Below, piece by piece: positions 6,508 to 41,202 of a DNA stretch of 44,111 nucleotides. The notes under the pieces are model-generated. The model searched no databases and was not told the origin of the DNA. It saw only the letters and a program-made list of their open reading frames with translations. The stretch lies in NCBI GenBank assembly GCA_039800705.1, contig JBDLQG010000001.1:1-44111 (forward strand), read 5' to 3'. The DNA comes from Pseudomonadota bacterium (lineage in GTDB: Bacteria; Pseudomonadota; Gammaproteobacteria; Methylococcales; Methylomonadaceae). The position numbers and the translations under genes are program-made. Positions within the stretch are counted from its first letter, which is position 1. Every line of letters begins with the position of its first letter.

Positions 6508-6773
6508 TGGCTAAAGTTATTCCTTTTTTACCCGCTAATGATGTGCCTTTTCAAGCTACGGTTACACTAGACGGACACGCTTATATCTTTTATGTACGGT
6601 GGAATATTTTTGGTCAGCGGTGGTATGTGGTTCTGTATGACACAACAGGCGATTTAATATTTAATTTGCCATTAGTTGAATCACCATTGACTTATAACAT
6701 ATCACTAACGCGCGGGTATTTTGATACTCAGTTAGTTTTTCGTGAATCTAGCCAATGTTTTGAGGTGATTTGA
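6507..6773 (+). CDS. small tail/baseplate protein
   Basis: ATG at 6507 with AGGAG 8 nt upstream and TGATG overlap. The track start at 6489 is an alternative upstream start. Confidence 0.5.
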   Translation: MAKVIPFLPANDVPFQATVTLDGHAYIFYVRWNIFGQRWYVVLYDTTGDLIFNLPLVESPLTYNISLTRGYFDTQLVFRESSQCFEVI

Positions 6774-7780
6774 TGCGTTATTACGCTATCACCATCACAC
6801 CTAAAGCACAGCCTAGCCAAGCCGACCGCGCTCAGGAGCTTAAAACGGGCGTGCCATTACCTGCCAGTGGTAAAGACGGTAAGCCTATCACCATTACCAG
6901 TTTAAAACCTGATGGTAAAGTAAACCTGAACGCTTTAAACGTTGAGATTGATATACCGCTTGCAACATTTAACGATCCTGAAGGCATGGCTAATGTTAAA
7001 ATTTATGGCATATCCATAGAAGACATTATGCAAGCCGCTGATTTAAACGGCGGTTTGATTGAGATTAGCGGGGGCATGAGTAAAGGCTTGCCGCTTGCTA
7101 ATCCAGACCAAGCAGGTGTTTTATTAGTTGGCACTGTCTATCAAGCGTTTGGCAACTGGATAGGCGATCAAATGACGCTGGATTTAATTGTGCAAATTAC
7201 CGATAACACAGTGAATAATTTTGTGGTCAACTGGAAAGCTGGCAGCGAATTAAAAACGATGGTGCAAAACGTACTTACACAGAATTACCCAGGGTATCAG
7301 CTTAAGTTTAATGTGCGTCAAGCAATGACATTAACAGCCGATGAAACTGGCGCGTATCAATCGATTTATCAATTTGCGTATTTTGTAAAGCGCATATCAC
7401 AGCACATCATCAAAGATTACGCTTATCCAGGTGTGGATATATCAGTACTTGGCAAGACGTTCTTAATCAATGATGGCACAACCAAAGACAAACCTAAGCA
7501 AATACAGTTTATTGATTTAATCGGACAGCCAACGTGGTTAAACTACGGTACAATCCAGTTTAAATGTCCTATGCGTGCTGATTTGCATTTTGGGGATTTT
7601 GTCAGCTTGCCAGAGGGCGCGGTTAAATTATCGGGCAAGTCATTTTCACAGCTTAAAAAGGGTGTGACGTTTCAAGGTACATTTCAAATACAACGGGTGC
7701 GTCATGTTGGAAACTTTCGACAAGCGGACGCGGGTAGCTGGTGTACAGTCATTGATGCTTTACAAGTGGATACGCAATAA
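6773..7780 (+). CDS. baseplate hub-like protein
   Basis: 335 aa with ATG 6773 after GAGGTG. Placed before the spike/W/J genes, as in Mu/P2-type baseplate modules. Confidence 0.5.
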   Translation: MRYYAITITPKAQPSQADRAQELKTGVPLPASGKDGKPITITSLKPDGKVNLNALNVEIDIPLATFNDPEGMANVKIYGISIEDIMQAADLNGGLIEISGGMSKGLPLANPDQAGVLLVGTVYQAFGNWIGDQMTLDLIVQITDNTVNNFVVNWKAGSELKTMVQNVLTQNYPGYQLKFNVRQAMTLTADETGAYQSIYQFAYFVKRISQHIIKDYAYPGVDISVLGKTFLINDGTTKDKPKQIQFIDLIGQPTWLNYGTIQFKCPMRADLHFGDFVSLPEGAVKLSGKSFSQLKKGVTFQGTFQIQRVRHVGNFRQADAGSWCTVIDALQVDTQ

Positions 7781-8373
7781 TGAACGGTCAAAAAACGCCT
7801 TTTAACTTATCGATTAATCGCAATGCACAACGCAAAGCAGAGGACGCAATACAGCAAACAGGGCGTGCTTTACCTTGCAGTGTTGTAGCCGTTAGCCAGA
7901 CGGTAGGCGGTGCAATTGTTACAGTAAAATTCGAGGTTGATACAGGGTTTACGCTACCTAACGTCACTATTCCGCATTTTGGTGGCGAATGGATACGCTA
8001 CCCCGTACAAATAGGTGATAAAGGCATTGCAATACCAAGCGATACCCGATTGAACGATATAAGCGGTATTGGTTCAGGCGTTGCGGATTTAACAACTAAA
8101 GGCAATTTAACTGGATTAGTGTTTATGCCAATTGGCAATGCTAATTGGTCAAGCCCTACCAGTCAATTAAAACTTGAATTGTACGGTAAAGATGGCGTTA
8201 TTGTACGGTCACAAAATGGCGGGGCTAATTATATCCAGATTACAGAGGCGGGTATTACTGTGCATGGTACTGTAACAGTGACGGGCGATGTTATTGCTGA
8301 TGGTATTAGCTTAAAAACACACCAACACGGTAATGTACAAACAGGCGGCAGCCAGACGGGAGTACCAGTATAA
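7780..8373 (+). CDS. baseplate spike / assembly protein V (Mu gp45-like)
   Basis: 197 aa with C-terminal ...LKTHQHGNVQTGGSQTGVPV, typical of gpV/gp45 spikes. Supported by gene order. Confidence 0.6.
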   Translation: MNGQKTPFNLSINRNAQRKAEDAIQQTGRALPCSVVAVSQTVGGAIVTVKFEVDTGFTLPNVTIPHFGGEWIRYPVQIGDKGIAIPSDTRLNDISGIGSGVADLTTKGNLTGLVFMPIGNANWSSPTSQLKLELYGKDGVIVRSQNGGANYIQITEAGITVHGTVTVTGDVIADGISLKTHQHGNVQTGGSQTGVPV

Positions 8374-8702
8374 TGCGAGTATGGGGTAGAGTAAACGGCG
8401 TATGGCAGAAAGTTACAACCGATGACAAAGGGTTTAATGATGCGGTGTATATCACTAATGTTGCACAAGTTCTTAATTTGAATTTAGGCGAATCGCCTTT
8501 TTTTGCTAACTATGGAATACCAGCGCATGAATCAGTAGTGAGTTCGATTTTTCCAACTTATTATGTGCAACGGGTGCAAGATCAATTCGCACAGTTTTTT
8601 AGCGCAATGACCATTCAACAATTAGAACAACCTTACCCGTGTTATAACGTAAATGTGACAACTCAACAAGGTAGCAGTTTAATCGTGCAAGTGCCTATTT
8701 AA
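8373..8702 (+). CDS. baseplate wedge protein (gp25/W-like)
   Basis: 109 aa with TAATG coupling. Call rests on position and size. Confidence 0.5.
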   Translation: MRVWGRVNGVWQKVTTDDKGFNDAVYITNVAQVLNLNLGESPFFANYGIPAHESVVSSIFPTYYVQRVQDQFAQFFSAMTIQQLEQPYPCYNVNVTTQQGSSLIVQVPI

Positions 8703-8711
8703 TGTTATAAT
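8703..8711 (+). promoter_or_regulatory. extended -10 promoter element TGTTATAAT
   Basis: Perfect TGnTATAAT directly after the stop of the W-like gene. The predicted start site falls at the foot of the 8717 hairpin. Confidence 0.5.
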
Positions 8712-8716
8712 GTAAC

Positions 8717-8768
8717 AACCATAGGGCGGATTAATTACCCGAAGCACCTACCAGCGTTCCCTATGGTT
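8717..8768 (+). promoter_or_regulatory. 5' leader stem-loop (10-bp stem AACCATAGGG/CCCTATGGTT, 32-nt loop)
   Basis: Perfect complementarity read directly. The 3' arm CCCTAT can alternatively pair with ATAGG of the downstream translation initiation region at 8790-8794. Confidence 0.55.
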
Positions 8769-8990
8769 ATTTTAATGGTAGCTAATCAGATAGGTAGTAA
8801 GATGACAGATTTAACAAACACGTTATTTAATGATAATAACGATAAAAGTATAGAAGAGTATATAGCGTTAATTGATGCTGAATTGCTTTTTGAATTGTCT
8901 GGGGTTTTTTGTTCATTAAGAACTATTAATAATCCTATATTTGATATAGTTGTAGACGAATCGAGCATAAGCCACTCCCATGGTGACTAA
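8763..8990 (+). CDS. small strongly acidic protein (moron gene); more likely start ATG 8802 (62 aa)
   Basis: AT-rich ORF. The 8802 start has TAGGTAG-N4-ATG, as at 30666 and 37279. D+E = 12 versus K+R = 2. Confidence 0.4.
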   Translation: MVILMVANQIGSKMTDLTNTLFNDNNDKSIEEYIALIDAELLFELSGVFCSLRTINNPIFDIVVDESSISHSHGD

Positions 8991-9014
8991 ACGCAAGTGA
9001 ACCGCCGACGGCTA

Positions 9015-9035
9015 GGGGCTGGTTAATCTAGCCCC
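9015..9035 (+). terminator. GC-rich hairpin GGGGCTGG-TTAAT-CTAGCCCC (putative moron terminator)
   Basis: 8-bp stem (one G-U) and 5-nt loop, followed by the only partly U-rich CCTTATTACTT. Confidence 0.4.
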
Positions 9036-9062
9036 GACCTTATTACTTAATAGGTGTCTATA

Positions 9063-9191
9063 ATGAAGAGTTTAGAAACTATGTTTATCTGGATTTTAGC
9101 GGGTTTTGCAATAGGTTTTGCGTTAATATTGTCTTTATTTTGGTATTTAGAGCGAATTTATAAACATAAAGCCAAAGTGAGAATGTTATGA
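9063..9191 (+). CDS. 42-aa single-pass membrane peptide (not in ORF track)
   Basis: MKSLETMFIWILAGFAIGFALILSLFWYLERIYKHKAKVRML. TAGGTGTC-N4-ATG initiation region, and its stop forms ATGA with the J-like gene start at 9188. Confidence 0.55.
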   Translation: MKSLETMFIWILAGFAIGFALILSLFWYLERIYKHKAKVRML

Positions 9192-10612
9192 CTGCTCAAA
9201 CTATCACAATGACGGCTACAGGTGCATTACCTACGCCTCCACAAACATTACGCGATGAGTTAGTGGCTTATGTGGCGGCCGATGTGCCAGATTACACAGC
9301 TAATTTGCCAGGAACGTTGATTGAAGACATAGCAAGCACGGACGTGGGTGCGTTAGTGGTTTGTGATAATGCTTATGTGGAGTTGATTAATTCGATTAGT
9401 CCAGTCAACAGCAATCTATTTATTCTCAACCAACAAGCAGCGGCGGCAGGCATTCCCCCGATGGGTTTTCCAAGTCGTACAGCGGTTTATTGTACGTTTA
9501 GCGGTTTAGCTGGTTACATTGTTTCACAAGGTTTTATCGTGTCCGATGGGACATATCAATACACAACCCAAGAAAGCGCGGTTATCGGTGTAAGCGGATC
9601 ATCATCACCTGTTTACTGTGTTGCGACTCAAGACGGTAGTTGGGCAGTTCCATCGGGTAGCGTAACCGCGCTTGCCACATCCATACCAACAGGCACAACG
9701 CTAACTGTTGTTAATTTGACGGACGGCATACCAGGCGAAAGCTCAGAATCGATAGGTGATTTTAGGGCCCGTGTTTTAAAGTCTTGGAGCGTTGGCGGCC
9801 AAGGGATGACGGCGTATTTAAAAACCTTGCTCACTGGTATTACAGGCGTACAACAGCGGCTAATATCGGTAAGACAACAGTCTACACAGTGGGAAGTTAT
9901 CTGCGGTGGTGGCGATCCTTACGAAGTCGGTATGGCTATCTATCAAGCGTTGTTTTATTTACCAGGGCTAACAGGTAGCGTTATCTCAGTGACGGGCATA
10001 TCGGTAGCAGCCAATGCCGTTGTAACGACTAACTTAAATCACGGACTGACAACAGGACAAACGGGCGTTTTAATTAATGGCGTTGTTGGCACAATGGCGG
10101 CATCAATTAACGGTGTTGCTTTAACAATTGTTGTACTTACTCCTACCACATTTACATGCGGGATTAATACAACTGGATTGGCTTATACAAGCGGTGGCGT
10201 ATTAACACCTAATACACGCAATGTAACCGTAAATTTATACGATTATCCAGATACCTACGCGGTTACGTTTGTTAATCCACCTATGCAAACTGTGCATATC
10301 GGCATTACTTGGAATACATCAAGCCCGTATGTTGTCAGCGCGGCAGCGGTTAATTCCTTGGCTAACATTGCCGTTGTTAATTACATTAACAGTATTCCAG
10401 TAGGGCAGCCGATTAATGAATTGACACTTGAAGATGTATTTAAAGAATCAATTGCAAGCGTTGTACCGTCTGAATTATTAGTTAGATTAGTGTTTACTTA
10501 CTCGATTAATGGCGTGAATGCGTCTGTTGTGGCAGGTGAAAAAATTGTATTAAGTGATCCTGAATCGTATTTTTATACAACACAAAGTAACGTGACCATC
10601 ACGCAAGGTTAA
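9188..10612 (+). CDS. baseplate wedge protein J-like, with inserted HGL..NG..TFT module (aa ~266-341)
   Basis: 474 aa in the position of gpJ/Mu gp47. The insert resembles the one in the sheath. Confidence 0.65.
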   Translation: MTAQTITMTATGALPTPPQTLRDELVAYVAADVPDYTANLPGTLIEDIASTDVGALVVCDNAYVELINSISPVNSNLFILNQQAAAAGIPPMGFPSRTAVYCTFSGLAGYIVSQGFIVSDGTYQYTTQESAVIGVSGSSSPVYCVATQDGSWAVPSGSVTALATSIPTGTTLTVVNLTDGIPGESSESIGDFRARVLKSWSVGGQGMTAYLKTLLTGITGVQQRLISVRQQSTQWEVICGGGDPYEVGMAIYQALFYLPGLTGSVISVTGISVAANAVVTTNLNHGLTTGQTGVLINGVVGTMAASINGVALTIVVLTPTTFTCGINTTGLAYTSGGVLTPNTRNVTVNLYDYPDTYAVTFVNPPMQTVHIGITWNTSSPYVVSAAAVNSLANIAVVNYINSIPVGQPINELTLEDVFKESIASVVPSELLVRLVFTYSINGVNASVVAGEKIVLSDPESYFYTTQSNVTITQG

Positions 10613-21626: not shown

Positions 21627-22052
21627 TCAATGTTTTATAAACCGACTCGCACCAGCGCGTAGCCTTGCCAGTACGTCTTTTTTTGCGTCCTTGTCAAATT
21701 CGTCCAGTAAATCCAGCAATCTAGCGAACTCCATAGAGGTTAGCTGTCCTTTTTGCTGATTTGTTTTTTTGCTGGTTATTGCCAGATTCCAGATTTTAAA
21801 GCTACCGTTACGGCTTACAGGCTGTTTATGGTCCAGTTCAATGTCGGTAATCGGTACACGAGCTCCTGTGTATTCACAAGTTAAGTATTGCCGTTTACGG
21901 TACGTTTCTATGCGTGGCTCATAGGTAAGCAAAAACAAGTAAAAGTCGTTAGGCATAGGCACATCATCGGGTGATATGCTTAGTTTTTTAGCACGCGCTA
22001 AACAATTGATCCTAAAGTTTTGTGCTTTTTTTTTGGCTATTTGTCGAAACAT
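21627..22052 (-). CDS. HNH endonuclease (possibly the C-terminal part of a longer gene)
   Basis: ELDHKQPVSRNGSFKIWNLAITSKKTNQQKG HNH motif. The start lies inside the upstream ORF next to an A9 run. Confidence 0.8.
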   Translation of the reverse strand: MFRQIAKKKAQNFRINCLARAKKLSISPDDVPMPNDFYLFLLTYEPRIETYRKRQYLTCEYTGARVPITDIELDHKQPVSRNGSFKIWNLAITSKKTNQQKGQLTSMEFARLLDLLDEFDKDAKKDVLARLRAGASRFIKH

Positions 22053-22203: not shown

Positions 22204-22478
22204 TCGCTTCTATATGCGCATAAATTGCAGACATTTTCAGCTTGCATTTGCAAATTAGGATTGCAATTAAAGCATTCTGGCGGCTCAATAAGAGTGCTCC
22301 AGAAACTATAATATTCAGCAGGATTTAAACCCATACAATCAACAATTAATACTTGTTTAATCTCGCATTTTTTACAACGTCTTATTGTTGATTTTGACGA
22401 TATTCCTAGTAAATCATAATCACCTTGTTGTATCGTTTCCCATTGATGGAAATGAAATAGTTTTTTTAAATTAATCAT
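22191..22478 (-). CDS. Cys-rich small protein
   Basis: 95 aa containing CKKC...CFNC...CNLC. Confidence 0.6.
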   Translation of the reverse strand: MINLKKLFHFHQWETIQQGDYDLLGISSKSTIRRCKKCEIKQVLIVDCMGLNPAEYYSFWSTLIEPPECFNCNPNLQMQAENVCNLCAYRSECIK

Positions 22479-23161
22479 TGGGTGTCGTGTCCGTGTATTA
22501 AGTTATGGCAATCTTTGCAGACTGTTAAAAGATGGTTCATTGGTTCATTGCCCAATTCTGCATAGGTTATGTGATGCACTCTGAGATTGTTTTTACTAAA
22601 ACAAAGTTTACATTCATTGTTATCAAGAGCCATTCTGTTTTGTCGTTGTCTTTTCCACTTTTCAGAATGAATATAATCGTTGTATTCGTCTAGCAGGATT
22701 TGTGGGATTTTGTGGGCATATTTAGGAATATCAAACGGTGTTAAATTTATAGCAGAACCAAGCAATAATAAATATGTTTCGTTCCAACTATTTGAAATCC
22801 ATTCAATAACTAAATCTGAAATATAACCAAGATGTTCCTTGCATTCTGGGCAATACAAAATATATGATTTTCTATCATCGTCATGTTGTATAAACCCAAA
22901 ACTTAACCCGTTACGGTTATGGTTATAATGCTCATCCGATAATTTCCAAAAATTATCTTTAAATACATCGGCTTTAAAATTTAAAGCTTTTCCTGATTGT
23001 TCAACAAGTTCATAACCACAATTTAAAGCAATCTCTTTTTTTACAGCCGTACCAAAGAACGAACCGCATTTAATACAATACTGTCTATATTGCGTTCTAC
23101 CTATTGAATCAGTTGTAAAACAATACTTAAATTCTGTTGATTCACATACTTTACATTTCAT
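22475..23161 (-). CDS. zinc-ribbon protein with C-terminal HNH nuclease motif
   Basis: CKVC..CIKC and CPEC at the N-terminus and middle. CKLC...RVHHITY...NHLLTVCKDCHNLIHGH at the C-terminus. Confidence 0.7.
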   Translation of the reverse strand: MKCKVCESTEFKYCFTTDSIGRTQYRQYCIKCGSFFGTAVKKEIALNCGYELVEQSGKALNFKADVFKDNFWKLSDEHYNHNRNGLSFGFIQHDDDRKSYILYCPECKEHLGYISDLVIEWISNSWNETYLLLLGSAINLTPFDIPKYAHKIPQILLDEYNDYIHSEKWKRQRQNRMALDNNECKLCFSKNNLRVHHITYAELGNEPMNHLLTVCKDCHNLIHGHDTQ

Positions 23162-23194: not shown

Positions 23195-23211
23195 TTATTG
23201 TAACACAATAA
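23195..23211. promoter_or_regulatory. operator-like inverted repeat TTATTGT-AAC-ACAATAA
   Basis: Perfect 7-bp arms between the divergent early genes. Confidence 0.5.
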
Positions 23212-23222
23212 CAGGAAAAGCA

Positions 23223-25843: not shown

Positions 25844-25855
25844 TTTTGCTATTTT

Positions 25856-26177
25856 GGGTTATCTTCTATGGTAGATGATAACCCATGATAACCCAGAAGA
25901 TAACCTAACGTAAGTTATTGATTTTTAAATGATTTATTTCTCTATTTATAACTAAAGTTATCTTGTTATCAACTATTTTATAAAAATAGATAGAGAATAA
26001 GATAACAAAAATAGAAAATAAAAAATAAATTTTTTTCTGTAAATGTTTGAAATAGATGATAACCCGCATAGATGATAACCCAAACCTACTTGAATCCGCG
26101 CGGCTGTAAGGCTGAGCATGGGTTATCATGTAGATAACCTAGATAACCTAAGTAAAATAAAATTGAGTAGATAACCC
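25856..26177. repeat. origin of replication: iterons (A)GATAACC(C/T) flanking an A/T-rich core
   Basis: 10 copies of GATAACC in both orientations: 25856-64 rev, 25877-84, 25887-94, 25899-905, 26058-65, 26074-81, 26120-27 rev, 26133-39, 26142-48, 26170-77. Three share the 12-mer AGATGATAACCC. Three more GATAAC cores occur in the A/T-rich centre. Confidence 0.75.
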
Positions 26178-36922: not shown

Positions 36923-37104
36923 AACCCGCCGACCTAATCCGCTTAAGTGGAGTGTCAAAACAAACGCTCCACAACTGGAAAAAGAATAAGCCAGTGCTGT
37001 ATGAAGTTGTACGCCTTGGCTGTGAAGTAAAACTACAACAAGAACCACAACTGCAAGACAATTGGTACGAATGCAAGACATTAGACAACACCCAGATTAC
37101 ATAG
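36919..37104 (+). CDS. small HTH DNA-binding protein
   Basis: LIRLSGVSKQTLHNWKKNK HTH. ATGA overlap with the portal stop. Confidence 0.6.
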   Translation: MKPADLIRLSGVSKQTLHNWKKNKPVLYEVVRLGCEVKLQQEPQLQDNWYECKTLDNTQIT

Positions 37105-37166
37105 CCGCCGTAATCAATGCTTATAATCAGGGCGCGATAACTAAACAACAGCGCGATGATTTACTA

Positions 37167-37193
37167 AAGCCACTCTAAGCAGTGGCTTTTTTT
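37167..37193 (+). terminator. rho-independent terminator
   Basis: AAGCCACT-CTAAGC-AGTGGCTT followed by TTTTT. Confidence 0.8.
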
Positions 37194-37194
37194 A

Positions 37195-37203
37195 TGGTAT
37201 AAT
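37195..37203 (+). promoter_or_regulatory. extended -10 promoter TGGTATAAT
   Basis: Perfect TGnTATAAT abutting the terminator. Confidence 0.6.
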
Positions 37204-37208
37204 GTTTA

Positions 37209-37286
37209 TGTGGCTAGGGTAGCTCCCGAAAACGTGATTACTCGCACGAATGCCACACTATCCTATCGAGTACCATTTTAGGGTAA
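37209..37286 (+). promoter_or_regulatory. structured 5' leader of the Rha gene with competing helices
   Basis: TGTGGC/GCCACA (37209-14 / 37252-57). CTATCCTA (37258-65) can pair either with TAGGGTAG (37215-22) or with the initiation-region octamer TAGGGTAA (37279-86). Confidence 0.4.
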
Positions 37287-37290
37287 TAAA

Positions 37291-37956
37291 ATGCAAACAG
37301 AATTAGTACACAGAGAAAATAATAAGGCTTTTACAGATTCTTTGATTGTGGCAAAAGAATTTAATAAACGTCCTGCTTATGTTCACGAAAAAATAAAGGC
37401 TTTTCTTAATAGCGAAAATGACGAATTAAGAAAATTCGGACTGCAAACTTTTGTGCAATCCTCTTATGTAGATGAAACAAATAAAGTCCGTGAAAAGTTT
37501 GATATTACAGAAGACGGCTTTTTAGAATTGGCAATGTCATTTACTGGCGATAAATCAAGACTGATTCGCACACGATTTATAAAAGCCTTTCGTGATGCTC
37601 TTAATGAAATTAACCGACTTTATGCTAACCCGCCACGAACCGATTTAATAACTGACAAGCGTAACGCACATAACCCGATGATGACGGCATTAATTGAATT
37701 GCGGCATGATTTAGGCAAAGAAACAAAGCCAGTGCATTTTATGTGTGAAAATAAATTATGCAATGGTGTAGTAACTGGCAATTACAAAACAGCCGATGAA
37801 TCCGCGTTATCAAATGCCGATATTGAACTGTTGGCACAAGTACGAAAACGTAATGAAGCGTTTTTATTGTCTGGTATCGAGTATGAAGAGCGCAAAAAAA
37901 GATTAATTGCGTTTGCAATGAAACATCGAACTAATTTACTAAAAACAGGACAATAA
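37291..37956 (+). CDS. Rha-family phage regulatory protein
   Basis: The N-terminus ...NNKAFTDSLIVAKEFNKRPAYVHEKIKAF resembles the Rha domain. Confidence 0.6.
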   Translation: MQTELVHRENNKAFTDSLIVAKEFNKRPAYVHEKIKAFLNSENDELRKFGLQTFVQSSYVDETNKVREKFDITEDGFLELAMSFTGDKSRLIRTRFIKAFRDALNEINRLYANPPRTDLITDKRNAHNPMMTALIELRHDLGKETKPVHFMCENKLCNGVVTGNYKTADESALSNADIELLAQVRKRNEAFLLSGIEYEERKKRLIAFAMKHRTNLLKTGQ

Positions 37957-37958
37957 AA

Positions 37959-38276
37959 ATGTTTTTTACCTTTGTACAAAATAATGTTCATGGCGACATT
38001 GTTAAAAACGAAAACGTTGCTGAATATGTGATTATAGAAGCTGATAATTCAGAAAAAGCCAATGAAAAAGCAACTCTAATTGGAATAGATGAAAGTGATT
38101 ATTGCGAATGTTGCGGTTGGCGATGGGTAGATGCGGAAGATAAAAACGGAACTATAAATCCTACAGTAAAAGATATTACCGACTTAGAAAATTATAAGGA
38201 TGATTTTTATCCATCGGTAAAAATTATTATTTATTATGATAATGGTAAAAAAACAATATTAACGTGCAATTGGTAA
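37959..38276 (+). CDS. hypothetical protein (CECCGWRW motif)
   Basis: 105 aa. Confidence 0.6.
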   Translation: MFFTFVQNNVHGDIVKNENVAEYVIIEADNSEKANEKATLIGIDESDYCECCGWRWVDAEDKNGTINPTVKDITDLENYKDDFYPSVKIIIYYDNGKKTILTCNW

Positions 38277-38288
38277 CGCGATGAATTA

Positions 38289-38318
38289 TTGACAACCAAT
38301 AAAAACACGCGCTAAACT
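38289..38318 (+). promoter_or_regulatory. promoter TTGACA-18-TAAACT
   Basis: Consensus -35 at 38289-94 and -10 at 38313-18. Confidence 0.5.
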
Positions 38319-38324
38319 AACCAT

Positions 38325-38425
38325 AGATTTTTGAATATGTGCGGTAACACGAATTCAAAAGTCATTCAGTGTACTTTATAAAAACCCGCGTCATAATGTT
38401 ACCGCATTGTGATAGCGGGTTTTTT
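38325..38425 (+). ncRNA. candidate ~100-nt sRNA or attenuator leader (two hairpins plus U-tract)
   Basis: Hairpin 1: 38326-36 / 38353-63, 11 bp with a 16-nt loop. Hairpin 2: AAACCCGC..TCATAATG-TTACCG-CATTGTGA..GCGGGTTT followed by TTTT. Loop 1 TGCGGTAACA (38340-49) is the exact complement of TGTTACCGCA (38397-406). Confidence 0.4.
38382..38425 (+). terminator. long rho-independent terminator hairpin
   Basis: 8 + 8 bp stem, hexaloop and T-run, 16 nt upstream of ATG 38441. Confidence 0.65.
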
Positions 38426-38440
38426 ATTGGGATTTATAAA

Positions 38441-38773
38441 ATGAAAACATTACTTATAGCAGCAATCGCTTTAATGATTGCAACAACTGCACAGGCTAAA
38501 CCTGTCCACAAAAACACTCAAGCGGATGCTGATTTTTGCGGGTATACTTACAATGAACTTGCAGAAGTGGCGGTGATAGAGGGATTTTGTGGTATTAGAG
38601 GCTCTAAGGCTTTGGAGCTGGATAGATTACTGTCTTCAAAACATTGCCCACAACCCACTAATCAAGAGATGCTTAACATTGTGAACGCACAAAAAGCAGA
38701 AGTGCAGGACGTGGCGCGGACTAATCCAAGCTTGTGTCAATCGGAAGCGGTAAAAAACATCATTGGTTATTAA
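38441..38773 (+). CDS. secreted/periplasmic small protein (signal peptide, 4 Cys)
   Basis: MKTLLIAAIALMIATTAQA/KP signal sequence. The track start at 38369 lies inside the terminator hairpin. Confidence 0.6.
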   Translation: MKTLLIAAIALMIATTAQAKPVHKNTQADADFCGYTYNELAEVAVIEGFCGIRGSKALELDRLLSSKHCPQPTNQEMLNIVNAQKAEVQDVARTNPSLCQSEAVKNIIGY

Positions 38774-38774
38774 C

Positions 38775-39551
38775 ATGCGAACAGTTAACGAGTTACTTAC
38801 AGCGGCAATTAAAGACATTGAAGAGCATGGTTTTGATAGTGCTGAACGTGTCGAGAGTTGGATTAAGCAAATCAAGGCGGCTATTGAGTTGGGACAGGAA
38901 CCCGATGAAAAGTTGATTGAACGCTTAAAAGCATCCTACACGCCTAAAGTGGGTAAAGCGTTACAAAAGTTAAATGACCAGATACCGCTATTTAGAAAGC
39001 AACAGATTAAACAAAGTCTTTACGGTGAACTTGACAGGCGAATACTGTCAGCGTCCAGCCTTATCAAACTACGCAAAGAACAGGCAGTAAACGAAACCCT
39101 AAGGCGGTTTGTCGGGTGGTCAACGTCTATACCAATAGGCGGCGGTGATGTGACCGACAAGGTTGAGCTAAAACAAGGCATTAAAAAATCGCTTAGTCAA
39201 ATGTCATTTATAGAGCGTAGATGTTCAATCGATCAAGCCGCTAAGCTAGTGGCTAATATTAAAGATATTGTGGCGGTGGATTCAGGGGCTATAGCGGGGC
39301 AATGGCACAGTCATTTTAGACGACCAGGTTATGATTTTAGAAAAGACCATGCCGAAAGAGACGGACAATTTTTTATAATCCGTGATAGCTGGGCGGATAA
39401 ATTGGGATTAGTAAAAGGTACATACACCGATGAGATAACTATGCCATCTCAAGAACCATTTTGTCAGTGTGATTACAGTTATTACTACAAACTAAATCGA
39501 TTACCCGATGAGAACCTGACTAAAAAAGGTATGGAGTATTTGAAACGATGA
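38775..39551 (+). CDS. head morphogenesis protein (MuF / SPP1 gp7-like)
   Basis: ATG at 38775 (track TTG at 38763). C-terminal ...EPFCQCDYSY resembles the MuF H..CRC region. Position is downstream of the portal. Confidence 0.6.
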   Translation: MRTVNELLTAAIKDIEEHGFDSAERVESWIKQIKAAIELGQEPDEKLIERLKASYTPKVGKALQKLNDQIPLFRKQQIKQSLYGELDRRILSASSLIKLRKEQAVNETLRRFVGWSTSIPIGGGDVTDKVELKQGIKKSLSQMSFIERRCSIDQAAKLVANIKDIVAVDSGAIAGQWHSHFRRPGYDFRKDHAERDGQFFIIRDSWADKLGLVKGTYTDEITMPSQEPFCQCDYSYYYKLNRLPDENLTKKGMEYLKR

Positions 39552-39808
39552 GAATTAGAAAGCTAAACGTAAAATGCGAGCCGTATACATTAAATCTATC
39601 GACTTATTCAGAAATTATAAATTTGCCTTTTATAAAAACCAGTTTAAGCGGTGGTGTATGTTTAGATGCTGAATGCGTAAGTGGCCCAGAATTACATAAA
39701 AAATGGCAGGAAACGGCATTGATAGAAGCCGAACAAGACCTAAAAGAATACATGGAGAAATATCTTAATTATGTACAACGAGTTAGACACGCTAAATACT
39801 TAGGATAG
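39548..39808 (+). CDS. hypothetical protein
   Basis: 86 aa, ATGA coupling. Confidence 0.6.
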   Translation: MRIRKLNVKCEPYTLNLSTYSEIINLPFIKTSLSGGVCLDAECVSGPELHKKWQETALIEAEQDLKEYMEKYLNYVQRVRHAKYLG

Positions 39809-39885
39809 TGATAAAATAATTACGCTAGTTACAGTTCTATACAGCATTAATCAGTTAGTCTGGAATGCGCAAAAAACTGATTAAA

Positions 39886-39913
39886 AACGCCTATTAATTA
39901 GGCGTTTTTTTTT
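39886..39913 (+). terminator. rho-independent terminator
   Basis: AACGCCT-ATTAATT-AGGCGTT followed by T9, preceded by a second 9-bp hairpin (39848-56 / 39875-83). Confidence 0.85.
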
Positions 39914-39921
39914 GCCTGTAT

Positions 39922-39954
39922 ATGTTATGATATAACATAACATAGTGCTATAAT
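39922..39954 (+). promoter_or_regulatory. capsid-operon promoter: palindrome ATGTTAT-GAT-ATAACAT plus extended -10 TGCTATAAT
   Basis: TGCTATAAT at 39946-54. The ATG at 39961 is 7 nt after the -10, a leaderless geometry. Confidence 0.5.
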
Positions 39955-39960
39955 CAAATC

Positions 39961-41202
39961 ATGACTACAGAACTCGATATAGCTAGACAAATAGCTAACG
40001 GTGAACTACCAAGCCCACAAAAAGCGGGTGATTCTACCGTATTGCTTGACATTCGCATCACAGGCACGGGCGTAGCATATCGAGCTAAACTAAACGAGTT
40101 TGTATCACGCAATCCAGACTATTACTTAAACGATGATTTTTTAGCAAGCTGTAACGGTGCACCCGTGATATGGGAACATCCAGACGGCAACAAATTAAAC
40201 AGTGATGAGTTTGCAGACCGCGTAATCGGTACAGTTTTTTTTCCATATCTTAAAGATAGTGAAGTCTGGGGCATTGCTAAAATCTACGATCAATACGCTA
40301 TCGATAAAATCATGGATGGTGGGCTATCAACCAGTCCGACTGTGATATTTGACAAACAGCAACCTACGCAACAAATTGAAATAAATGGTAAGCCAGAAAC
40401 GATACTAATCGAGGGCGAACCGTCAATAATTGACCACGTTGCCATCACCGAAAACGGCGGTGTATGGGACAAAGGACAAGAACCAAACGGGATAAATCTA
40501 TCCATTAACACAACTGAGGGCGATACCATGCCAGATGAAGTAATTGAAAGCCAAGAACACGAGGCACAAGAAGAGAGCGTACAAGCTCAGATTCTGGCGG
40601 CTCTCGGTAAAATTAGCGAGCGTTTAGACGCGCTTGAGGGCGCGAAAGCCGATGCGGTCGCACCACCTGCTCCAGAAACACCACCAGCCGAACCCGCTCA
40701 ACCTGTAGCAGAAGTGAAAGCCGATGATGATATTCCTAATCGGATAGCAGAAGTTGAAAAGAAACTTGATTCTATGACAGCTAAACCTGCTGTGTTATCC
40801 GATTCTGACATGGAAGAGGTAGCAGACAGTGAAGGAAAAGGAGCGGAATTATCACACGTTTTCGGTGATAGTAATCCTATCCGCGCGATGCAAGGCGAAA
40901 CACCTACAGCATTCCGTAAGCGTCTTATTCGCAAATATCAAAAACACAGCCCCGCGTTTAAAGATTCTAACGTGGACATGATTAACGATGCGGCAACACT
41001 AAAATCCATTGAAGCTACTGTTTATGCCGATTCAATGAAAGCGGCGAAATCGCCAAACATTAACACGGGCTCAAACATGCCGCGTGAAATTAAACATGAA
41101 TCAATGGGAAGAACAACTATTGAATTTGTTGGTGGTGAACCAGGCGCAGTGTATAACCAGTTTAAAGCCGCTTCACGCACTGGCAGATTAGGAGCTAATT
41201 AA
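39961..41202 (+). CDS. prohead protease/scaffold-like protein (DUF2213-like N-terminus, scaffold-like C-terminus)
   Basis: 413 aa upstream of the capsid gene. Acidic, Pro/Ala-rich and coiled C-terminal half. In-frame internal ATG at 40528 with GAGGG RBS. Confidence 0.6.
   Translation: MTTELDIARQIANGELPSPQKAGDSTVLLDIRITGTGVAYRAKLNEFVSRNPDYYLNDDFLASCNGAPVIWEHPDGNKLNSDEFADRVIGTVFFPYLKDSEVWGIAKIYDQYAIDKIMDGGLSTSPTVIFDKQQPTQQIEINGKPETILIEGEPSIIDHVAITENGGVWDKGQEPNGINLSINTTEGDTMPDEVIESQEHEAQEESVQAQILAALGKISERLDALEGAKADAVAPPAPETPPAEPAQPVAEVKADDDIPNRIAEVEKKLDSMTAKPAVLSDSDMEEVADSEGKGAELSHVFGDSNPIRAMQGETPTAFRKRLIRKYQKHSPAFKDSNVDMINDAATLKSIEATVYADSMKAAKSPNINTGSNMPREIKHESMGRTTIEFVGGEPGAVYNQFKAASRTGRLGAN

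Follow-up and report, generated by a model that had tools for sequence, protein, structure and literature searches.

We describe a 485-bp gap between two baseplate genes, one in the W position and one encoding a Baseplate J-like protein, in a 44,111-nt stretch of DNA (contig JBDLQG010000001.1; hereafter the window, which means the whole stretch; coordinates refer to it and features lie on its + strand unless otherwise stated). The window as a whole resembles the complete, ∼44-kb genome of a contractile-tailed phage from a freshwater metagenome. With a confidence slightly above even, we read the gap as an exchangeable slot for accessory genes, here in its filled state, which lies at the W|J junction in a small lineage of uncultured myoviruses. 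This reading draws on the anatomy of the gap, on a presence/absence polymorphism and a swap of cargo among close relatives, on covariation in a stem and on purifying selection acting on a membrane peptide. The parts of the slot and its borders are, in order:

8373-8702, + strand: baseplate gene in the W position, 109 aa, left border of the slot (phrog_7986, E = 8e-39)
8703-8717, + strand: 15-mer TGTTATAATGTAACA, an extended -10 inside a TGTTA-N5-TAACA palindrome
8717-8768, + strand: stem-loop at the predicted 5' end of a transcript, with a 10-bp stem and a 32-nt loop holding two small inner helices
8769-8801, + strand: remaining conserved leader, with the Shine-Dalgarno (SD) sequence AGGT (8792-8795) 6 nt before the ATG at 8802
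8802-8990, + strand (other starts at 8763 and 8775): acidic open reading frame (ORF) of 62 aa, an orphan, net charge -10, isoelectric point 4.05
9015-9035, + strand: GC-rich intercistronic hairpin of 8 bp with a 5-nt loop, arms GGGGCTGG/CTAGCCCC
9063-9191, + strand: single-pass membrane peptide of 42 aa with a hydrophobic core and a basic C-tail, net charge +4
9188-10612, + strand: Baseplate J-like gene, 474 aa, right border of the slot (PF04865 and phrog_6)

A first reading of this DNA, made from its letters without database searches (the sequence-only reading), had proposed that the W-like and J-like genes normally abut and that an AT-rich insert of 485 bp splits them here. When the sequence was read from 8400 to 9500, all of the features it had listed were found where it had placed them, and the insert had the size and composition ascribed to it, with a GC content of 0.32-0.37 (across 8700-9100) versus 0.41-0.46 in the flanking genes. 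The junction was surveyed by tblastn in 72 loci, 66 of which carry both the W and J genes; the estimated W-J gap was ≤55 nt in approximately 50 of these 66 related loci, confirming that the two genes normally abut, and many showed a 4-nt overlap. The same overlap was found in deposited relatives retrieved via the W-like protein (the Yersinia vB_YenM_06.16-1 group, Klebsiella phages Chronis, RothC and RothD, Pantoea phage PdC23 and Shewanella phage vB_Sb_QDWS). Since the W and J genes abut in most related loci, the 485-bp gap represents an insertion. A blastn search of positions 8300-9600 against deposited phages returned no match, and contig-level read comparison in four metagenomes found no form in which the insert was skipped. 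A search among RNA runs found none that covers the region.

Judging from the surveyed loci, the W|J junction is a recurrent insertion hotspot with unrelated fillings. Actinobacillus phage pPE4 and Escherichia phage Rac-SA53 (L003 and L004) carry an antirepressor gene (ant) plus hypothetical genes there on the minus strand, three loci (L022 to L024) carry a 164-aa ORF, also on the minus strand, and another (L063) carries a 119-aa ORF. Two loci hold an acidic 77-aa ORF (L054 4416-4628; L057 3386-3616) with a net charge of -8 that is unrelated to the acidic ORF of the window; the copy in L054 has an 18-nt deletion and a stop after 29 codons, and is thus decaying. The junction between the spike gene (V) and W accepts small inserts too, as a 45-aa ORF lies there in both pPE4 and Rac-SA53 (L003 2856-2993; L004 2856-2993).

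The close lineage was delimited by a W gene at least 85% identical at the nucleotide level; within it, W and J differ by 8-19% at the nucleotide level. The set, composed of the five-member 90% cluster of the W protein plus the contigs encoding the only homologue of the acidic ORF, amounted to six independent sequences, in which the junction occurs in three states:

State a, the window and L070 to L072 (microbial-mat metagenomes): 15-mer, stem-loop, acidic ORF, hairpin and membrane ORF
State b, L006 (IMG/VR 3300021438): the same 15-mer, stem-loop and SD, then one unrelated membrane ORF of 48 aa, with J 11 nt further on
State c, L197, L198 and L199: cargo-free, with an identical 37-nt spacer TGTTATAATGTAACACTATAATAATCAGGTTATTATC followed by the J start

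Aligning relatives to see whether the insert is present or absent had been suggested as a check by the sequence-only reading; the insert is missing in L197, L198 and L199 and present in L070 to L072, and because these close relatives lack the cargo, the unit is accessory, as had been claimed and in keeping with its deviant base composition. Filled and empty states are interleaved in the tree, since L006 is nearest to the empty L197 and L198 (91% identity in W and in J). On comparison of the window with L006, the limits of the cargo coincide with the first start codon on one side and with the J start on the other. The window and L070 are 95-97% identical over the block that runs from the leader up to the membrane ORF start, more than in the flanks (90-92%), which points to recent exchange. 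In the next relative, L200 (72% W identity), W and J are 7 nt apart and the 15-mer is absent. The element is restricted to a handful of contigs, all metagenomic, which come from samples of freshwater and microbial mats.

The 15-mer TGTTATAATGTAACA is unchanged in the window, L070 to L072, L006, L197, L198 and L199, and conservation ends precisely at its 3' end in all three junction states. Being invariant in six sequences while W and J differ as above, it is under constraint; being kept in the three cargo-less relatives, the promoter-like box is not tied to the cargo; and being absent from L200, it is lineage-specific. The perfect extended -10 within it (TGTTATAAT, 8703-8711), which the sequence-only reading had picked out, sits immediately 3' of the W-like stop codon (8700-8702) and is both conserved and credible as a signal of the sigma-70 type. 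We therefore regard the 15-mer as a strongly conserved, promoter-like element resident at the junction, and its palindrome as a possible operator. A terminator-like hairpin with a T7 run inside W (8486-8505), which would have made the 8703 box a restart promoter, was rejected, as it is not maintained in relatives and is explained by conserved Phe-Phe codons.

Related boxes occur elsewhere in the window. Counts of TGNTATAAT (4 versus 3.4 expected) were not enriched, and genome-wide enrichment of TGTTA-N5-TAACA was not significant (5 matches versus 3.7 expected). Three of the four TGNTATAAT boxes lie on the coding (+) strand within the intergenic 12% of the genome, those at 37195 and 39946 come directly after strong intrinsic terminators, and two near-perfect versions of the box are found in the early divergent region. 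From this pattern we infer that the phage uses extended -10 promoters throughout and that the 8703 box is predicted to be one of its own promoters. The placement of TGTTA-N5-TAACA palindromes in promoter regions is suggestive, and palindromes of this type may be operators of the phage; a copy with a single mismatch is found in the early divergent promoter region (23199-23213). Ahead of the head gene (39921-39961), a palindrome TGTTATGATATAACA is followed by a perfect extended -10 TGCTATAAT, and the terminator, palindrome and box are all conserved in the L006 genome (L202 3461-3503), where adjacent bases vary. As the TGCTATAAT box ends 6 nt before the head-gene ATG, the head-gene mRNA would be leaderless or nearly so.

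The distribution of the box bears directly on the interpretation offered by the sequence-only reading, namely that the insert is a self-contained moron, equipped with a promoter, a regulated leader and a terminator of its own, and that its acidic protein would be a DNA mimic or anti-defence factor whose expression does not depend on the structural operon. Morons were reportedly defined for HK97 and HK022 by Juhala and colleagues in 2000. The insert shares much with such a unit: it is extra DNA between genes that are separated in close relatives by only 37 nt (L197 to L199) or 7 nt (L200) and that overlap by 4 nt in most distant relatives, its base composition is deviant, and it opens with a perfect extended -10 and a 5' stem-loop. 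The box may even have come originally with a moron, since the outgroup L200 lacks it. However, the box is equally conserved, and unchanged, where there is no cargo, no terminator insulates it from W, and none closes the unit downstream, as the hairpin at 9015-9035 has no U-run. The stop codon of the last ORF overlaps the start of J, which ties the unit into the late operon, and the description as self-contained did not hold. Given the lack of a terminator between W and the box, the internal hairpin without a U-run and the overlap with J, the cargo would be transcribed both by read-through and from the resident promoter. As to an anti-defence role, a net charge of -10 in 62 aa speaks in its favor, as does the small acidic ORF (net -8) that L057 carries at this junction and that is unrelated to the one in the window; on the other side, searches of Pfam, PHROGs, PADLOC and the PDB and with phmmer linked the protein to none of the known anti-defence or defence families, and the structural model described below is a partly hydrophobic helix with a disordered tail and no confident array of acidic side chains. 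All in all, we consider a self-contained anti-defence moron unlikely.

Downstream of the box, the leader holds the 10-bp stem and 32-nt loop that the sequence-only reading had described. Its arms, AACCATAGGG (8717-8726) and CCCTATGGTT (8759-8768), form a perfect inverted repeat, with a fold energy of -15.9 kcal/mol (z = -2.7). Taken by itself, a 10-bp stem is ordinary, as inverted repeats of ≥10 nt within 60 nt occur 24 times in the window; the stronger indication comes from L006, which differs from the window by four substitutions over the 20 stem positions, all accounted for by two compensatory pairs (A-U to U-A and G-C to A-U). Thus, 2 of the 10 stem pairs changed on both sides, none changed on one side only, and L006 adds 2 bp. 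The distance from the -10 to the stem is 6 nt in both genomes, which places the stem at the expected +1. Of the 32 loop positions, 5 differ between the two, and the invariant stretches include CTACCAGCGTTC. From these comparisons, the stem-loop at 8717-8768 appears to be selected. Further on, the window, L070 and L006 share AATGGTAGCTA and ATAGGTAGTAA without any change, and the similarity to L006 stops at the start codon. An alternative pairing of the 3' arm with the initiation region (AUAGG), put forward by the sequence-only reading, had to be abandoned as a conserved switch because the L006 arm has changed to CUCAAU while its SD region stayed the same.

Searches for this leader elsewhere gave little. 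Rfam returned nothing at gathering thresholds for the whole window, and only chance-level snoRNA, miRNA and lncRNA matches at E values up to 10. When a covariance model of the leader was used, neither the window (with the leader that follows the 37195 promoter) nor the 24 further loci searched yielded another copy. A 14-base leader pattern gave chance matches only in public collections, and a 19-base pattern recovered the L006 contig alone among IMG/VR viral contigs and, in JGI metagenomes, the L006 contig plus one chance match in bacterial genes. The stem-loop was not called in an intrinsic terminator scan; its loop spans 32 nt, and its run of 3-4 U varies in length.

The cargo proper begins with the acidic ORF, for which 62 stop-free codons have a probability of P = 0.0035 at 31% GC. 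The sequence-only reading had given its very acidic product a length of 62-75 aa: the net charge of -10 stood, and the 62-aa frame is kept in L070, but the 75-aa start at 8763 is put out of frame there by a 1-nt deletion. In L006, the ATG at the position of 8775 is in a frame other than that of its cargo. The ATG at 8802 follows AGGT by 6 nt and corresponds in position to the start of the L006 cargo. On these comparisons the ORF is best read as 62 aa from 8802. The protein of L070 to L072 is 84% identical to that of the window and carries an in-frame 15-nt duplication with no stop (net charge -11 in L070). A 60-aa ORF on the minus strand (8786-8968) was set aside, as it is not conserved in L070. 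The acidic protein recovered itself and P0002 only among 5.8 billion proteins, and itself alone in a full phmmer search of 1.84 billion cluster representatives; tblastn against phages gave no match, and there was none in Pfam, PHROG or PADLOC. The sole PDB match (4mtm_A, a tail-fibre chain; E = 0.074) was judged on inspection to be due to chance. AlphaFold2, run on a 2-sequence alignment, predicted helices at residues 2-10 and 17-42, the long central one rather hydrophobic, and a disordered C-terminal third; with a predicted local distance difference test (pLDDT) score of 56.7 (predicted template modeling score, 0.26), the model is unfit for fold search or charge mapping.

Between the two ORFs, the GC-rich hairpin reported by the sequence-only reading is present, with a fold energy of -17.6 kcal/mol (z = -2.8), and is kept in L070 with two wobble-compatible changes. 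It has no U-run (GACCTTATTACTT / GACCUUAUUACUU follows) and is absent from the terminator-scan calls; it is not a canonical terminator. The 42-aa single-transmembrane (TM) peptide beyond it, likewise borne out, is preceded by the SD sequence AGGTG (9052-9056), 6 nt upstream of its start, and its TGA overlaps the J-like ATG at 9188 (ATGA), an overlap retained in L070. A perfect TATAAT (9059-9064) overlaps the start of the ORF, with a TG one base too far upstream for an extended -10, and is identical in L070 (9055-9064); it could be a weak internal promoter for J, or mere context of the SD and start codon.

In comparison with L070, the ratio of nonsynonymous to synonymous differences (pN/pS) of the membrane ORF was 0.18 (pS 0.78, pN 0.14; p = 3e-9), against 0.02 for the W-like gene and 0.05 for the J-like gene, and by this measure the peptide is clearly under purifying selection. 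Both this ORF and the acidic one look genuine. Identity to L070 drops from 89% in the 5' third of the ORF to 67% in its 3' two thirds (9109-9187 versus L070 754-832), between flanks of 90-92%, making the gene a mosaic. Divergence of the 3' part, with the frame and the ATGA overlap kept, suggests either that the alleles diverged long ago or that a recombination joint lies within this gene of 42 codons. By the positive-inside rule, the topology of the peptide is probably N-out/C-in. A protein-database search with the peptide found itself only, with no Pfam or PHROG match at E ≤0.01. The 48-aa peptide of L006 and the 42-aa peptide of the window are both small, basic-tailed and directly before J, and are unrelated in sequence; no paralogues of the cargo proteins were found in the window or in 201 loci.

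The recurrence of such a peptide next to J might indicate an accessory for late functions or lysis timing, in which the membrane peptides would be holin- or antiholin-like modulators, or would block re-adsorption to or ejection into a dying cell, and would be co-expressed with late genes. Both cargo versions have the peptide in this position, read-through of the late operon and translational coupling to J would provide late expression, and the phage is perhaps lytic, no integrase having been found. Yet the peptide is missing in close relatives and so cannot be an essential holin, no recognizable lysis gene adjoins it, and the two peptides share no sequence similarity. Holins are generally longer than 42 aa, and a peptide of that length with one TM segment falls short of them. 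We hold this explanation to be improbable as well, and rank it after the self-contained moron.

A slimmer chance attaches to the view that the DNA is largely inert, the acidic ORF being untranslated and the stem-loop a scar or a recombination signal by which cassettes are exchanged as DNA. In its favor, the pN/pS of the acidic ORF is not significantly below 1, the two proteins are orphans, the compensatory changes would preserve a DNA hairpin equally well, and the swap boundaries coincide with the leader. Against it stand the low probability of a 62-codon open frame by chance, the in-frame indel in L070 to L072, the SD spacing that the acidic ORF has in common with the L006 cargo, the strong purifying selection on the membrane ORF despite a pS of 0.78 and a leader that is 97% identical between the window and L070 when synonymous sites in the flanks differ by 33%. 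Slimmest of all is a toxin-antidote or addiction pair in which the 42-aa peptide would be a membrane toxin like those of type I systems, restrained by the acidic protein or by surrounding structured RNA: a small hydrophobic, basic-tailed peptide is indeed paired with a small acidic protein between structured RNA elements, but L006 has a membrane peptide without an acidic partner, neither an antisense promoter nor a conserved antisense ORF was seen (the 60-aa minus-strand ORF being lost in L070), there would be a cost in having a toxin coupled to an essential late gene, and there was no PADLOC or Pfam match.

If the gap is the filled state of an exchangeable slot, its working can be sketched as follows, with promoter activity, the roles of the hairpins and all protein functions being predictions. 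A lineage-specific 15-mer promoter would be resident at the junction with or without cargo; in filled genomes it would be followed by a conserved adaptor, made up of the stem-loop from about +1 and the SD, with the cargo beginning at the start codon. Here, the cargo would be bicistronic, comprising a helical, acidic, cytoplasmic protein of 62 aa, the hairpin and the 42-aa membrane peptide. Transcripts would arise from read-through of the upstream baseplate genes plus starts at the resident promoter, the 5'-terminal hairpin would protect promoter-initiated mRNA against 5'-end-dependent decay, the internal hairpin may favor the upstream cistron as a 3' stabilizer or partial stop, and ribosomes ending the membrane peptide would re-initiate on J. 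The cargo would thus be made alongside the late baseplate and fibre genes and would be dispensable for the virion. By analogy with HK97 gp15, the membrane peptide might act at the inner membrane in exclusion or in blocking entry, and the acidic protein might be a cytoplasmic inhibitor of a host or competitor protein; for a cargo composed of a host-acting exclusion peptide and an acidic inhibitor we keep a tentative preference, well short of even confidence. A bolder version, which we think as unlikely as the self-contained moron, would make the junction a dedicated expression slot, the counterpart of a gene-cassette platform, in which small ORFs are exchanged at the start codon behind an operator-controlled extended -10 promoter and a covarying hairpin/SD adaptor, the cargo being an unseen two-protein exclusion or counter-defence module without a relative among ∼15 billion predicted proteins.

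Several points weigh against reading the gap as such a slot. The covariation of the stem comes from a single comparison, since there are three independent leader sequences, two of them close, and covariation of this kind is the same for an RNA as for a DNA hairpin. The transcription start and the fate of the hairpins are predicted from sequence alone. With an outgroup (L200) that lacks the 15-mer, the empty junction may be ancestral or may derive from loss of cargo. The acidic ORF has a pN/pS of 0.44 versus L070, which is not significantly below neutral (p = 0.10). The proposed roles of the proteins rest on size, charge, hydrophobicity and analogy, as neither has a homologue, domain or confident fold. 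Lastly, the classic moron logic of expression from a prophage may not apply, because no integrase was found among the ORFs tested.

Family scans of the ORFs identified sheath, portal, terminase, primase-helicase and an Erf/exonuclease pair in the window. The W-position gene lies between a gpV-type spike gene and the Baseplate_J gene, in the same order as in the Yersinia, Klebsiella and Shewanella relatives. The two genes upstream of it, both identified by PHROG/Pfam matches, are:

6770-7780, + strand: baseplate hub
7780-8373, + strand: gpV-type spike with an Apex motif

No tRNA genes were found in the window, and the ORFs that were scanned yielded neither an integrase nor a CI-type repressor. 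The phage is possibly not temperate, and the lack of an integrase among the scanned ORFs is the reason for thinking that it may be lytic; distant relatives sharing the same tail module are temperate (PMC9224151; bioRxiv 10.1101/2024.12.02.626457). A search of GTDB for prophages returned relatives at ≤52% identity only, in a metagenome-assembled genome of a bog gammaproteobacterium and in Burkholderia, Acinetobacter and Nitrospira bins. The early leftward operon contains two HNH endonuclease-like genes (21627-22052 and 22475-23161). Just 3' of the primase-helicase gene, around a small minus-strand ORF, inverted and repeated GGGTTATC(T/A)TC motifs are clustered at 25850-25908 and 26069-26132; the cluster resembles iterons, an origin or an operator region.

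A second accessory island occupies positions 36923-39960 of the structural arm, between the portal gene and a head protease-like gene. Its order is:

37166-37189: intrinsic terminator
37195-37203: TGGTATAAT, followed by a leader of ∼88 nt
37291-37956: Rha-family regulator (PF09669), followed by four small ORFs
39883-39909: bidirectional terminator

The ∼88-nt leader of this island folds as a 5' stem with two inner hairpins, and the terminator at 39883-39909 is strong. At the same place, the L006 genome (L202) has a different, shorter set of ORFs with none of the size of Rha (ORFs were compared by size and families were not scanned).

These observations carry a caution for annotation, in that a promoter-like signal beside a phage accessory gene need not belong to that gene. 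The combination of promoter, ORF and hairpin is insufficient for calling a moron, because here exchange affects the ORFs alone, the box and part of the leader being resident. The orphan proteins of the cassette are both very small, one of them is under clear purifying selection, and they are cheap candidates for exclusion, counter-defence and toxicity screens, for which the genomes with empty junctions and alternative cargo are ready-made natural controls. The immediate impact is limited, the element being confined to few metagenomic contigs; interest would be greater if the adaptor were a general exchange platform, or the orphan pair a new exclusion or counter-defence module.

Among known systems, the closest parallels lie with morons, phage hotspots, stabilizing leaders and small acidic inhibitors. 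Gene 15 of HK97, the prototype moron of a tail operon, was reportedly described by Cumby and colleagues in 2012. Its product, gp15, is a small inner-membrane superinfection-exclusion protein, and the moron lies in the tail operon (PMC3594210). Like the gp15 moron, the insert in the window is extra DNA between late structural genes that abut in relatives, with a deviant composition, a sigma-70-type promoter signal and a small predicted inner-membrane protein that would be dispensable for the virion. Unlike it, the promoter-like box of the window is resident even without cargo, the element has no flanking terminator and its last ORF is coupled to an essential downstream gene. A hydrophobic segment, a basic C-tail and a position in the baseplate operon are seen directly in the 42-aa peptide, which nonetheless falls outside the gp15/YebO family, having no sequence similarity to it and no Pfam match at the threshold given above.

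The acidic protein belongs with small acidic phage inhibitors and DNA mimics (T7 Ocr, Gp5.9, phi29 p56, Ugi and several anti-CRISPRs) in size class, strong negative charge and accessory position. It has no sequence similarity or confident structural similarity to any of these, and, in contrast to them, it has a rather hydrophobic central helix and is predicted to be expressed late, with the baseplate genes, rather than early.

For the leader, the nearest analogue is the stem-loop in the 5' untranslated region of ompA, which Emory, Bouvet and Belasco reportedly showed in 1992 to stabilize mRNA against RNase E. As in ompA, a stable hairpin begins no more than one or two nucleotides from the predicted +1 and precedes an SD that is unstructured, and its position relative to the -10 is kept though the stem of L006 differs in length; by this analogy, the most economical function of the stem-loop would be that of a 5'-terminal stabilizing hairpin. 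Unlike a stabilizer of the ompA type, it has a large 32-nt loop with invariant stretches (CTACCAGCGTTC), and because a mere stabilizer would not need them, these exceed what that role alone would call for.

The element as a whole is outside known protein or RNA families and behaves like a hotspot cassette. The variable loci of P2 and P4 are hotspots of accessory genes that carry defence systems, and the W|J junction resembles such sites in temperate phages and satellites in being a fixed position between conserved genes that takes up unrelated cargo, including the ant/Rha inserts in pPE4 and Rac-SA53. It departs from such hotspots in that the cargo of the window is tiny (62 plus 42 aa) and lies on the strand of the late operon, and in that one RNA leader is common to different cargoes, a sharing that to our knowledge has not been described for hotspots of that kind. 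On the sequences compared here, the unusual detail is that two different cargoes share the predicted promoter, the hairpin and the SD adaptor, and that the boundary at which they are swapped is the start codon.

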